Part shown: positions 5,319 to 9,556 of the stretch, piece by piece
How positions within the stretch are numbered: the stretch's first letter is position 1
Layout of the letters: the number at the start of each line of letters is the position of its first letter
Virus record (IMG/VR): IMGVR_UViG_3300013006_001433
Coordinates: 14,159 to 78,158 of that record
Length of the DNA stretch: 64,000 nucleotides
Origin: a virus
Direction: 5' to 3' (one strand)
Notes under the pieces: model-generated
Told to the model about the DNA's origin: nothing
Databases searched by the model: none
What the model saw: the letters and a program-made list of their open reading frames with translations, nothing else
Made by a program: the position numbers and the translations under genes

Positions 5319-5454
5319 ATTTTCTTTCTAAGGTAAAGAATAGTTTACAGTGTTTTTAATTTTTATAAAAGAAAAATAACTAAACTAGTGTTAATAACTT
5401 TATATCGTACTAAACAAGTGTACTGATCTAATATCTTTTCTTAATAAATATTTC

Positions 5455-5737
5455 CCAATGAGCTCCTTCAAAGCAGAGCTTTCCCTGTGTTTTACCACAA
5501 GTTCGCTTGAGCCGTTAGTTCAATTTCCCAATTGAGTCCATAAGCCTTTCGGCTCCCTAACACTTATCGGATGTCGGTAGGATCATCCATCGCGTGTTAG
5601 CCCTTTCACCTACACTCCCAGAATTTCTTCTGGTTTCTCAGGTCGCAAGCTCTGTTAGCGTTGCCTGACGTTAAGAACTAATCTAACTCACCATTTTAAG
5701 GAGTATGGCAAACCTTTTCGCCTTTCAGCGAGATGTC
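5455..5737 (-). ncRNA. candidate large structured non-coding RNA (unassigned family), or structured nrdA leader
   Basis: GC-richer intergenic island downstream of a consensus sigma70 promoter. Three GAAA-tetraloop hairpins, nested long-range helices (5708-5715/5499-5506; 5685-5690/5508-5513; 5675-5681/5515-5521) and a possible pseudoknot. Confidence 0.7.
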
Positions 5738-5742
5738 GTAGT

Positions 5743-5771
5743 ATAATACATGAATCAATATATTTTGTCAA
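5743..5771 (-). promoter_or_regulatory. sigma70-type promoter for the structured RNA / nrdAB
   Basis: Minus strand TTGACA (5771-5766), 17 nt, TATTAT (5748-5743). Predicted TSS ~5736. Confidence 0.8.
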
Positions 5772-5801: not shown

Positions 5802-6065
5802 ATGCCGATACCAAATCCAAAAGACAAAGAAAAGCAAAACGATTATATGGGTCGCTGTATGGAGTTTATGAAAGATGAAAAATATCCTCAAAAACAAAAA
5901 GTTGCTATTTGTTTGAATACTTTTCGTGGTCCACAAAAGAAAGCTAAGGGCGAAATTGAAATTGATTTCTCTGAACAAATCAAAAATCTGCATAAAAAAG
6001 AAGTAAAAATAGAAGAACCAACTCATACAGCTGTAACTGCACCAGTAGAACAAACTAAAGCCTAA
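5802..6065 (+). CDS. small phage protein with MPIP-P...RCM...AIC motif
   Basis: MPIPNPKDKEKQNDYMGRCM...QKVAICLNTF resembles a short two-Cys helical motif common in phage head-region proteins. Preceded by the GTGTAAT motif. Confidence 0.65.
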   Translation: MPIPNPKDKEKQNDYMGRCMEFMKDEKYPQKQKVAICLNTFRGPQKKAKGEIEIDFSEQIKNLHKKEVKIEEPTHTAVTAPVEQTKA

Positions 6066-6160: not shown

Positions 6161-7024
6161 ATGGTAACAAATAAAAAGATATTATGGATATCTGATTATA
6201 GCTTATCCCATTCTGCTGGAGGAGCCCAAAGAAGTAATGATATAATTATCCAAAAAGGCAGAGAATTAGGATATTCTATATTAGAAGCAAATTATAATTT
6301 TAATTTCAATATTGAAGATTTTAATCAATATGATATATTAATTTCATCCAATTTAGAAGCAATATACAAATTGCATTCTAATATCATAGATAAAATAGCT
6401 TCTCACAAGTATCATGTTAGACTTGAGCACGATTCAAATAGATACTTGAAACAAGAAGATAGAGAAAAACTTTTTAGATCTTGTAAAAAGACAGTATTTT
6501 TAACTAATTTTCATCATAAGTTATTTATTAATAATTATGGAAATATTTTTAATGATGTAAAAATCGTAGCGGATCCTATAGATACAGATTTATTCTACAA
6601 TCAAAACCAAGAAAGAGAAGACAAGATTTTATACGTTGGATTTATGCATGAGCTAAAAGGCACATTATCGTTTTTTGAATTTGCTATGGACAACCCTCAA
6701 TTACAATTTGTAGTTGCTGGATGGGGAACAAGAGTTTTTAATTTTTTGGCGACCAATACTCCTAATGTACAATATCTAGGAACAGTCTCCCACGAAGAAA
6801 TGCCTAAGCTTTTTAATAAATATGAAACACTTTTTTATAATCCAATTATACCAGAACCATTCTGTAGATCAGTTGCGGAAGGTGCATTGTGTGGAATAAA
6901 ATTAATGTCATCTAGTTCAAATATTATAGGATGTATGCACGAATTTCGAGAGTTAGGTAAAGAAAAATTTATTGAAAATTGCAAAAATGCTTCTAACTAT
7001 TTTTGGGAATCAATTATACAGTAA
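6161..7024 (+). CDS. GT4-like glycosyltransferase
   Basis: GGAQRS N-terminus, YVGFMHELKG, EPFCRSVAE signature. Confidence 0.8.
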   Translation: MVTNKKILWISDYSLSHSAGGAQRSNDIIIQKGRELGYSILEANYNFNFNIEDFNQYDILISSNLEAIYKLHSNIIDKIASHKYHVRLEHDSNRYLKQEDREKLFRSCKKTVFLTNFHHKLFINNYGNIFNDVKIVADPIDTDLFYNQNQEREDKILYVGFMHELKGTLSFFEFAMDNPQLQFVVAGWGTRVFNFLATNTPNVQYLGTVSHEEMPKLFNKYETLFYNPIIPEPFCRSVAEGALCGIKLMSSSSNIIGCMHEFRELGKEKFIENCKNASNYFWESIIQ

Positions 7025-7938
7025 TGACTATTATATTAGTCATAAATAAAACTCTGTCTAGGGGAACAAATTCACATCTAGATTCTGGATATTATAATTT
7101 TTATATACCATTACTAGAATTAGGACACAAAGTATTTTTATACGACACGATAAAAGGAAATGGAAAACCATTTCAAAATTTAGTAAAAGAAGTTAATCCA
7201 GATCTTATTATTTCTATATTGACTGGAAATAAAAACTTAACGCCATACGAGCCAATAGAAGAAATAGAATCTATAACGAAAGAAAACAAAATAAAGACAT
7301 TTAATTGGTTTTGCGATGATACATGGAGATTTGATACTTTTAATAAAAATATTTGTAAAAAATTTACAGTATGTTCAACACCAGAAGCGAATTATATAAG
7401 TAAATACAAACAAGAAGGATATAATAATATATTATTAGGTCTATGGCATTGTAATCAAGACTTAAGAGTAGATTCAGATAAAGTATTAAATGTCACTTTT
7501 TGCGGCGGGCTGACAAATTCCAGAGCACAAAACTTTAATTATCTATCGCAAAATAATGTAGATTTAAAATATTTTCATGGATTATCTTATGAAGACGTCT
7601 TAAAAGCTTACTCTATATCTAAAATTGGATTAAATTTAACGGTAAATGATAATGATGTAGATAAAAAACCTCAAATGAAATTAAGAATATTTGAAATTCC
7701 AGCTTCTAAAACATTTCTGTTAACCGAGTATATAGACGATCTTGAAAATTACTTTGATATTGGGAAAGAAATCGAAACTTTTAAAACTATAGAAGAAGCA
7801 AAAGAAAAAATTAATTTCTATTTAAAAAACGATTCAGCTAGAGAAAATATTGCTAATGCTGGTTATCAAAGATTTTTAAGAGATCATACTTCTAAAATTA
7901 GATTAAATAATATAATAAATCAGATAGAAACCTTATGA
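7024..7938 (+). CDS. GT-B glycosyltransferase (CgeB/Glyco_trans_1_2-like)
   Basis: WFCDDTWR, SKIGLN, KLRIFEIPA...FLLTE, IANAGYQRFLRDHT. Start at 7024 (TAATG coupling). Confidence 0.8.
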   Translation: MTIILVINKTLSRGTNSHLDSGYYNFYIPLLELGHKVFLYDTIKGNGKPFQNLVKEVNPDLIISILTGNKNLTPYEPIEEIESITKENKIKTFNWFCDDTWRFDTFNKNICKKFTVCSTPEANYISKYKQEGYNNILLGLWHCNQDLRVDSDKVLNVTFCGGLTNSRAQNFNYLSQNNVDLKYFHGLSYEDVLKAYSISKIGLNLTVNDNDVDKKPQMKLRIFEIPASKTFLLTEYIDDLENYFDIGKEIETFKTIEEAKEKINFYLKNDSARENIANAGYQRFLRDHTSKIRLNNIINQIETL

Positions 7939-8834
7939 GAATTTATATACAGTTTCATCCCGCCCATGCAGGAAAATGGATTTATAATGGATACGCACAC
8001 GCATGGTTGTATCATGGATTTGAAGTTAAATTTATTAAATCATTAAATGAAATAGATCAAAATGAACCCTATCATTTGATGATAACAGATGGTATAATTT
8101 CTGAAAATAATATTCAATTTCTAGAAAAAAGCATTAAAACTATTCTATATGTATCACCAAATTTCTATCCAAAACCATGGGGAGATCATCCAAATTGGAA
8201 ATGCCCACTTAATGAAAACCTTATAGATAAAATTAATCAACTACCAAATATAATTAAATGGAATTTTTCAGATGTAAAAAATCAATTTTTCTTTATTTGG
8301 AAAAATGTAATTACATTACCATTAGCATTTGATAATATAAATTATTCTAATTCAATAAAAGATAAATATGAATATGACGTTTGCTATATTGGTGGTTTAG
8401 CTGATAATGGATTTAATGAAAAAATAAAAATAATGCAAGATACATTGACTCCATTTTTAGACACAAAATTGAAATGCGCTTTTTTCGTTGCTCAGAACTT
8501 GTCTCACGAACAAGAAAATTATATATTAAATAACTCTAAAATAGCTTTAAATATACATGACGAATACCAAAGAGTAAATCAATTAGATTGTAATGAAAGA
8601 ACCTTTAAGGGGTTAGGAGCAAATGGTTTCTTAGTGAGTGATAAAATAGAACAATTAAATAGACTTTTTCCACATGTTTTTATGTCAAACAATCCGCAAG
8701 AATTAGTTAATTTTTGTTTAGACTTTGCATCGAAAGATGCGAATCATATAAATGAAGAAAAATTAAAAAATCAAAAAATGATTGAGTCTAGCCATACTTA
8801 TATTAAAAGAGTAGAGTATTTATTAAAAATATGA
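7935..8834 (+). CDS. GT-B glycosyltransferase (CgeB/Glyco_trans_1_2-like)
   Basis: DVCYIGG, SKIALNIH, NERTF...GFLVSD, HTYIKRV. Confidence 0.75.
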   Translation: MRIYIQFHPAHAGKWIYNGYAHAWLYHGFEVKFIKSLNEIDQNEPYHLMITDGIISENNIQFLEKSIKTILYVSPNFYPKPWGDHPNWKCPLNENLIDKINQLPNIIKWNFSDVKNQFFFIWKNVITLPLAFDNINYSNSIKDKYEYDVCYIGGLADNGFNEKIKIMQDTLTPFLDTKLKCAFFVAQNLSHEQENYILNNSKIALNIHDEYQRVNQLDCNERTFKGLGANGFLVSDKIEQLNRLFPHVFMSNNPQELVNFCLDFASKDANHINEEKLKNQKMIESSHTYIKRVEYLLKI

Positions 8835-9556
8835 AAATCAATATTTTTATACCTAACTATAACAAAGAAAATTTTGTTCTAAAATGCCTATCTTCGTGCT
8901 TAAATCAAACGCATAAAGATTTAAAAATTATTTTTATAGACAACGAAAGTAAAGATAATAGTTTAGATTTAGTTAAAAAATTTCGAGATGAAAATAAATA
9001 TGACTTCACGATAGATAGTGCTAAAAATATTTATCCAAGATGTTGGGAAGAATGTATATACAAAGCTTTAGAATATTTCGATGGAGATTTCTTTACAATT
9101 GTTGGTTCAGATGATTGGCTTGATCCAAATTATATTGAAAACTTTTGCAAATGGTTAGAATTTAAAAATAAAGAGATTTTAATAGCTCAATCGGCTTTAC
9201 TTTGGATGAAGGATGGAGCAAGAGTTAACTTAGTCAACCATCCCTATTCTAATATTGAAGAATTAAAATTGAAGTTAACATTAGGCTGTTACGTTAATAC
9301 TCCGACTGTTTTCTTTAATAAAGAACTTGTGAAAAATGGCCTTTACAGAACTTATCCAAAACTTTATAGTGGAGCAGCAGATTATGATTTATATTGTCAA
9401 CTAGTAGATAAAAATATATATATAGAAAATATTGGAGAATGGATCGGATATTGCTATAATATTAATGATACTCAAGCAACTTGGCAAATGCATGGGGATA
9501 CAATTAATTATTCAAATGTTATTCGTAAAAAATGGAGAGACAAATGGAAGATCTAA
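8831..9556 (+). CDS. GT2 family glycosyltransferase
   Basis: IFIPNYN, IDNESKDNS, GSDD, ADYDL motifs. Confidence 0.85.
   Translation: MKINIFIPNYNKENFVLKCLSSCLNQTHKDLKIIFIDNESKDNSLDLVKKFRDENKYDFTIDSAKNIYPRCWEECIYKALEYFDGDFFTIVGSDDWLDPNYIENFCKWLEFKNKEILIAQSALLWMKDGARVNLVNHPYSNIEELKLKLTLGCYVNTPTVFFNKELVKNGLYRTYPKLYSGAADYDLYCQLVDKNIYIENIGEWIGYCYNINDTQATWQMHGDTINYSNVIRKKWRDKWKI

Follow-up and report, generated by a model that had tools for sequence, protein, structure and literature searches.

Upstream of nrdA, the minus strand of an uncultured freshwater phage carries an own gene for a non-coding RNA of ~290 nt, and this RNA is not an nrdA leader. The DNA analysed, hereafter called the window, is 64,000 nt long; it comes from an IMG/VR viral contig of 78 kb whose estimated completeness is about half. 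We consider the RNA to be a stand-alone structured ncRNA of a new family, with a probability of about 0.9. It belongs to a conserved, covarying and promoter-driven family that is absent from Rfam 15, in line with the proposal of a new phage ncRNA in the original prediction, which had been made from the letters of the window. Compensatory changes among its homologs show that its predicted fold is a compact body of about ten helices, locked by two long-range pseudoknots. It also carries two unpaired boxes whose sequence drifts among phages. We found no description of this RNA in the literature.

A promoter-driven RNA gene

The RNA gene sits on the minus strand, in a gene-free stretch of 483 nt that is bounded by the start of nrdA (5318) and by a divergent 87-aa ORF (5802). 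The positions of its elements are collected in the table below. An island at 5500-5724 stands out from its surroundings by its composition, with 46-48% G+C compared with 23-33% (about 27%) around it, and the original description of a GC-richer island was thus correct. The other sequence elements named in the original prediction were likewise all located where it had placed them. The 87-aa ORF (5802-6065, plus strand; MPIPNPKDKEKQNDYMGRCMEF...) belongs to no Pfam family and has homologs only in the closest relatives.

The promoter first recognized by eye, TTGACA-17-TATTAT, matches 11 of the 12 consensus positions. It is a general feature of the family, as a TTGACA-like hexamer, a 16-18-nt spacer and TAnnnT were found upstream of 87 of the 88 distinct copies. 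The first hexamer is exactly TTGACA in 86 of the 88, and the spacer is 17 nt long in 86 copies. In the other subtypes, a conserved ACAUAG starts 6-7 nt past the -10 hexamer. The 3' end was placed, by inference from the alignments, just past the second box, where conservation stops. A scan of the window sequence revealed no terminator-like site between the RNA and nrdA, as originally noted.

The predicted minimum free energy of a 306-nt stretch is -88.1 kcal/mol (z = -3.1), and none of 100 shuffles was as good. No ORF of at least 40 aa is present inside 5447-5687, and the homologs differ by indels of non-multiples of three and by compensatory pair changes. We thus rejected a protein-coding gene, as no conserved ORF accompanies these non-triplet indels and compensatory changes. 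In the metatranscriptome contigs of two lake runs, the part of the 87-aa ORF between 5818 and 6055 was covered at 100% identity, and both nrdA and nrdB were covered by contigs of relatives that are <90% identical. No contig of these two runs lay over the RNA, but contigs cannot show the absence of a transcript.

Table. Elements of the RNA gene and of the DNA preceding nrdA, in window coordinates and in the 5' to 3' order of the minus strand
Feature	Position	Strand	Basis or remark
-35 hexamer TTGACA of the RNA's own promoter	5766..5771	-	17-nt spacer to the -10 hexamer
-10 hexamer TATTAT	5743..5748	-	Transcription start inferred at about 5736, from spacing
RNA gene, about 290 nt	5447..5736	-	Homolog alignments and GC island
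P1, 5' hairpin UCGC-UGAAAG-GCGA	5718..5731	-	Compensated: CCGC/GCGG, GUAUUA/UAAUAC in homologs
P2 hairpin GCCAU/AUGGU, 10-nt loop	5690..5709	-	5/5 pairs changed on both sides; 93.5% of cells paired
P3 5' strand GAGUU (5685-5689) and P3b 5' strand UUAGUUC (5675-5681)	5675..5689	-	Covariation counts
P4 (UCAGG/CCUGA) and P4b (CGC/GCG) hairpin	5638..5668	-	95.7% and 98.6% paired; 7/8 pairs compensated
Pseudoknot 2, 5' strand AGAGCU in the P4b loop	5648..5653	-	Complementarity counts
P5 hairpin CCAGAA-GAAA-UUCUGG	5618..5633	-	Compensated: CCACUA/UAGUGG, CCUUAA/UUAAGG, others
Pseudoknot 1, 5' strand GUAGG in the junction	5609..5613	-	Covariation counts, helix 6
P6 (CUAACAC/GUGUUAG) around P7 (GGAUG/CAUCC)	5557..5600	-	Covariation counts, helices 7 and 8
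Pseudoknot 1, 3' strand CCUAC in the P7 loop	5577..5581	-	Covariation counts
P8 hairpin AGCC-GAAA-GGCU	5543..5554	-	Comparative support
Box 1 GGACUCAAUUGGGAAAU, unpaired, immediately 5' of the P3b 3' strand	5523..5539	-	Same as box 2, drifts among phages
P3b 3' strand GAACUAA (5515-5521) and P3 3' strand GGCUC (5509-5513)	5509..5521	-	Covariation counts
P9 hairpin CUUGUG-GUAAAA-CACAGG	5484..5501	-	Covariation counts, helix 9
Pseudoknot 2, 3' strand AGCUCU in the 3' domain	5475..5480	-	Complementarity counts
Box 2 GGAGCUCAUUGGGAAAU, unpaired, at the 3' end	5450..5466	-	Same as box 1, drifts among phages
nrdA-proximal element (GTACAC..GTTATTAACAC..TTTTTCTTTT..CTGTAAACT), ~105 nt, outside the RNA	5319..5423	-	Conserved in relatives

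Compensated helices, pseudoknots and twin boxes

An RNAalifold analysis of 18 subtype-A sequences yielded 66 pairs, 17 of them compensated. Nine helices comprising 48 pairs were then fixed and counted on a model alignment of 49 sequences. Standard pairs fill 89.1% of the 2256 cells, a share that falls to 32-42% in controls with the 3' partners shifted by 1-3 columns, and the covariation score is 0.56 compared with 0.08-0.11 in these controls; none of 500 shuffles reached the observed values. Changes on both sides were found in 38 of the 48 pairs among the 49 aligned homologs, the kind of covariation that had been proposed as a check of the original prediction. As the model used for the alignment contained just 27 pairs, the alignment leans little towards the structure tested. 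An all-column covariation scan of the mixed alignment was swamped by the split between subtypes.

Most of the helices that had been drawn by eye are backed by these comparative data. This holds for the 5' hairpin, for GAGUU/GGCUC and UUAGUUC/GAACUAA, for UCAGG/CCUGA, CCAGAA/UUCUGG, AGCC/GGCU and one 3' hairpin, and for CUAACAC/GUGUUAG with GGAUG/CAUCC inside. In the closing helices P3 and P3b, 10 of the 12 pairs have changed on both sides. P5 varies in length with a loop that is mostly GNRA, and P8, which has a GNRA loop in subtype A, is swapped for longer hairpins in subtypes B and D. The outermost helix of the original fold, AGGUUUGC/GCGAACUU, had to be abandoned because the region of its 3' partner is not conserved; furthermore, its GCC is used by the covarying hairpin GCCAU/AUGGU. 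The internal loop of the P4/P4b hairpin, GCAAYG...RAC, is near-universal. Many of the unpaired junction nucleotides (GCAAYG, GURG, AUAAGUG) have remained near-invariant, even between subtypes in which nearly all helices differ.

The first pseudoknot, GUAGG (5613-5609) with CCUAC (5581-5577), had been proposed from the window sequence, and it proved to be compensated. Four states were counted, GUAGG/CCUAC, GUAGC/GCUAC, GUGGC/GCCAC and GUGGA/UCCAC. A fifth, GUAGU/ACUAC, was seen by eye in a single subtype C sequence; it is absent from the column count, its loop being mis-registered in the alignment. The second pseudoknot had escaped the original reading. Its two strands are complementary at 6/6 Watson-Crick positions in 49 of 49 sequences, with 10 different 6-mers, whereas none of 2022 cross-pairings, between a loop and the tail of a sequence harbouring a different 6-mer, was perfect. 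It supersedes a small AAAGC/GCUUU hairpin predicted by RNAalifold. Another pseudoknot of the original prediction, ACUCCU/GGGAGU, is without compensatory changes, and in subtypes B and D its pairing is disrupted. We also considered a third pseudoknot or closing helix between the linker GGUUU and the purines 5' of box 2, but do not regard it as established, since it is wobble-rich and inconsistent in register.

The two boxes are purine-rich and lie outside the helices, 71-74 bp apart, i.e. about 7 helical turns. In all 88 distinct copies they form the longest exact direct repeat (10-13 nt), whereas repeats of at least 10 nt arose in 33 of 440 mononucleotide shuffles. The box pair has 15 different sequences among the 88 copies, with variants such as AUUGGGAAAU, AUUGGGAAGU, ACUGGGAAGU, AUUGGAAAGUA, AAAGAAAAGUU and AGGGAAAAAGUUU. 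As the boxes are identical in every copy and yet occur in 15 states, single-base changes appear in both boxes together. To our knowledge, twin exposed boxes that drift and nevertheless always remain identical have not been described in any RNA family.

Duplex, stack and own-versus-cross scans detected no complementary strand that tracks the boxes in the RNA or its flanks. Neither the box sequence nor its complement is enriched elsewhere in the window or in five phage records, and the phage tmRNA does not track the box sequence. Since no complement emerged from any of these searches, an external, co-evolving reader is left. Two candidates were rejected in the course of these searches. One is the T-rich tract before nrdA, a complement of the purine run in subtypes B and D; its complexity is low, however, subtype C lacks it, and its position is probably upstream of the nrdA start. 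The P2 loop was considered as a third box, but it changes while the boxes stay unchanged.

Distribution of the family and its position relative to nrdA

We identified about 200 relatives of the NrdA protein among IMG/VR contigs. The nearest cultured phages by NrdA are Pelagibacter myophages, with only 52% identity. An obvious homolog of the island is found about 120 nt before nrdA in 19 of the 80 best NrdA loci, and diverged versions, subtypes B and C, occupy the same place. A covariance model made from the pre-nrdA homologs detected further copies, of full length, in phages whose pre-nrdA position is empty. These copies make up subtypes D1 and D2 and are found either on the opposite strand, 1.45-2.8 kb past the end of nrdA, or at a distance of 8-10 kb. 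Two degenerate patterns matched 42 and 44 IMG/VR contigs, about 84 of them distinct, and a narrower pattern matched 29 metagenome contigs. The labelled runs that contain the window's stretch come from lake, freshwater or drinking-water samples. Each of five records has one strong copy, namely the window's own, searched by DNA, and those of four relatives, searched with the RNA model.

No copies were found among 185,579 prokaryote genomes, each representing one species, and BLAST searches with three subtypes returned nothing from 50,697 GenBank phage records. The Pelagibacter phages Mosig and HTVC008M have no copy. In the sister clade (NrdA about 78% identical; G003 and G004, both 74% complete), neither the model nor the promoter+ACATAG pattern revealed one, which does not prove its absence, and a model search with filters off gave noise only. 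In a locus of that clade (L216; G003:C1:148-3563), the DNA flanking the tmRNA gene has 40-47% G+C over several hundred bases, and a stretch of 21-29% G+C divides this G+C-rich DNA from the tmRNA on one side.

The search against Rfam 15 (4227 models) at gathering thresholds, performed on the window and 18 loci, gave no match over the RNA. At E<=10 or E<=5, there were only chance-level hits (RMST_8 with 15 bits, SpF36 with 19 bits). The statement that no RNase P, tmRNA, SRP, group I/II intron or common riboswitch consensus is present, made without database searches, thus agrees with cmscan.

The genetic context was counted for 83 distinct copies. Same-strand copies ahead of nrdA are either 95-125 nt (40 copies) or 1.2-7 kb (3 copies) upstream of it; 25 copies follow the nrdA-nrdB-small-ORF operon in convergent orientation, and the remaining 15 have no nrdA within the examined locus DNA. 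Where the RNA is convergent, only 7-14 nt lie between the end of its match and the stop of the facing ORF, and its own strand has no gene downstream. All copies with nrdA in the examined DNA or record are within about 10 kb of it, including those of G001 and G005 at 8-10 kb. One relative with 94% identity has no RNA before nrdA and has a copy elsewhere on its contig. In another, a gene for a GT25-family glycosyltransferase stands between the RNA and the nrdA-proximal element (L064:1790-2905), and the RNA and nrdA can therefore be separated. The homologs do not always precede nrdA, a point raised with the original prediction: only 40 of 83 are adjacent upstream, and their position varies.

Nearly all closer relatives (about 86% NrdA identity or above) retain the nrdA-proximal element, whether the RNA is present at this place or not. 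This element may be an nrdA-specific promoter or operator, possibly NrdR-box-like, and its downstream half has a single occurrence in the window.

The strand context is convergent, co-directional or divergent depending on the copy, and the divergent strand switch seen in the window is not constant in the family. In G001, the RNA heads a unit of ORFs of unknown function; genes for IMPDH/GMP-reductase-like, dCMP deaminase and dNMP kinase proteins are found between the RNA and nrdA in this genome. In several subtype D genomes, the RNA has a genuine phage tmRNA gene (92-116 bits) as its divergent neighbour, and in the window's own contig the tmRNA is 17.7 kb from the RNA. The latter is a one-piece tmRNA (RF00023, 106 bits; G000:C1:1514-1900), about 12.3 kb before the start of the window. 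Other tmRNA genes (RF00023, 92-116 bits) were located at L007:7837-8225, L013:7322-7712 and L219:8726-9113, and the tmRNA tag predicted by ARAGORN in G001 is AKTAKYKGHISARASLVEMTASVA. Runs of glycosyltransferase genes flank the nrd locus (190-1275 and 6161-9556 of the window; see also L219:6269-7234). In one locus (L032:6615-6857), a group I intron (RF00028, 69 bits) was detected about 2.6 kb downstream of nrdA.

Proposed working of the RNA and other readings

We propose that the RNA would be transcribed by the host RNA polymerase early in infection, as suggested by its sigma-70-type promoter, and would serve as a trans-acting scaffold or decoy. Its two boxes would together offer bivalent docking to one sequence-specific, co-evolving partner, present as two copies or as a dimer. 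This partner would most likely be a phage-encoded RNA-binding protein and less likely a nucleic acid. Since no terminator follows the RNA, its 3' end would probably arise by processing at or after box 2. As a whole, this early trans-acting RNA with its docking mechanism is our best explanation, to which we give somewhat less than even odds; the docking mechanism itself is tentative, at similar or slightly longer odds. No gene for an RNA-binding protein is consistently linked to the RNA, which argues against docking. The near-invariant unpaired junction nucleotides fit a ligand pocket or a catalytic core as well as a scaffold, and a copying mechanism, instead of a common reader, could maintain the boxes as identical sequences. 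In the 40 of 83 copies that precede nrdA, transcription would continue into nrdA, so a local cis effect is possible there.

In terms of proposed mechanism, the nearest systems appear to be the protein-sponge RNAs CsrB/RsmZ, CrcZ and EutX, with membership judged by Rfam alone. In those RNAs, the same single-stranded motif recurs on a structured body, and copies of a given RNA-binding protein are thereby titrated or assembled, as we suggest here. The new RNA differs in having only two sites, with a motif that is unlike GGA or CA and drifts between phages. By lifestyle, it seems nearest to GOLLD (RF01998) and ROOL (RF03087), which are promoter-driven, highly structured, protein-free-looking phage RNA genes of unknown function, often near tRNA- or tmRNA-type genes and first seen in lake or rumen metagenomes. 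However, they share no homology with the new RNA, as judged by the lack of an Rfam match, and it is about half their size or less. We know of no report of two covarying long-range pseudoknots with twin identical boxes in GOLLD or ROOL.

A ~420-nt regulatory leader of ribonucleotide reductase had been among the original suggestions, and the position of 40 of the 83 copies, on the same strand and with no terminator before nrdA, is what a riboswitch-like cis leader of nrdAB would show, as is the presence of a copy within about 10 kb wherever nrdA is in the examined DNA or record. The size and conserved junction core of the new RNA also resemble large aptamers, and the reductase leaders with cobalamin or 2'-dG riboswitches offer a precedent for an RNA placed, as here in half of the genomes, before nrdA on the same strand. 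Nevertheless, we hold this reading to be very improbable. The 25 convergent copies face the end of the nrd operon with no gene downstream of them, and others are 1.2-10 kb from nrdA or precede unrelated genes, such as the GT25 gene or unknown ORFs. There is neither an expression platform nor a match to a riboswitch model; the 95-125 nt before the start codon are AT-rich, independently conserved DNA, whose ~105-nt nrdA-proximal element is kept where the RNA is absent. Even less credit can be given to a very divergent form of a known RNA (RNase P RNA, tmRNA, 6S, phi29-type pRNA or GOLLD/ROOL). The RNA is phage-borne and sometimes found beside a tmRNA gene, and GGUGAAAGGG and GAGG(G)AAAGUC bear an apparent likeness to the RNase P conserved regions II and I. 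However, cmscan at E<=10 or E<=5 (subtypes A, B and D1) and gathering scores (all five subtypes) revealed no match, in searches in which the neighbouring phage tmRNA scores 92-116 bits. The RNase P models RF00010, RF00011, RF00373 and others gave no match at E<=10, the resembling strings are in a different order, the A in GGUGAAAGG varies within the family, and the order of the helices does not fit. Neither ARAGORN nor RF00023 detected a tmRNA at the RNA, and ARAGORN found no tRNA or tmRNA in the whole window.

Other readings bear on the boxes themselves. If the RNA were a conformational switch or a regulatory sRNA, the boxes would compete for one complementary strand, within the RNA or in a target mRNA, and the RNA would toggle between two folds or bind two target sites. 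Mutually exclusive pairing is classically recognized by identical same-sense segments; subtypes A and C have a local hairpin, AAAGC/GCUUU, that overlaps with the 3' strand of pseudoknot 2, and the U-rich linker GGUUU/GUUUU is a wobble-rich complement of the purine run just 5' of box 2. We nevertheless regard a switch or sRNA as unlikely, because the scans for a co-varying box complement were negative, box and complement are not enriched in the five phage records, the phage tmRNA does not track them, and the linker pairing is low in information with a register that differs between subtypes. A primer or R-loop RNA at an origin, in which the boxes would be iteron-like initiator sites in DNA or purine-rich sites of RNA:DNA hybrids, appears improbable. 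Iterons evolve in concert with their initiator, like the direct repeats of the new RNA that drift in concert, and the box spacing of about 7 helical turns, the strong promoter with no terminator after it, the divergent strand switch at the window's copy and the single copy per record searched are compatible with it. ColE1 RNA II and the T4 oriF/oriG transcripts are likewise unterminated RNAs with a promoter, from regions of replication and nucleotide metabolism, and purine-rich stretches would form stable RNA:DNA hybrids. However, RNA folding dominates the constraint, with 38 compensated pairs and two pseudoknots where an R-loop primer needs none, and the T4 origin transcripts have no counterpart to this extensive covariation of a compact pseudoknotted fold. 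In addition, the strand context is inconstant among copies, the downstream DNA is no richer in AT than the genome, and there is no linked initiator gene and no antisense partner like the RNA I of ColE1. A new self-processing ribozyme or metabolite sensor, with the conserved junction core as a putative active site and the boxes marking two equivalent processing or recognition sites, is similarly improbable. The compact double pseudoknot, the GNRA loops, mostly on P5 and in subtype A on P8, and the near-invariance of the junction nucleotides across subtypes with different helices would all suit it, and so would the lack of a terminator, since the convergent copies need a defined 3' end. By contrast, there is no likeness to any ribozyme or riboswitch model of Rfam 15, and a ligand pocket predicts invariant boxes, whereas those observed drift. 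Also rather unlikely is an RNA machine of early infection, a ribozyme or ligand sensor that would keep the boxes identical as its own equivalent sites. The boxes could then be identical processing or ligation sites, or be subject to a template-switch-like copy-and-re-pair step, and their identity would be the footprint of the mechanism and not of a protein reader.

Whichever way the boxes work, the finding corrects an easy mis-annotation of this RNA as a ribonucleotide-reductase leader. The twin boxes give a direct experimental handle, and the fold is small enough for cryo-EM, crystallography and in vitro probing without a cultured host. Large, intricately folded RNAs that are conserved across a whole virus lineage are rare, and those found in the past proved to be ribozymes, riboswitches or the cores of ribonucleoproteins. 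The RNA described here has an unusually well-determined fold, with two pseudoknots proven by compensation, and belongs to a widespread clade of uncultured freshwater phages, with contigs of up to about 190 kb and one copy per record searched.
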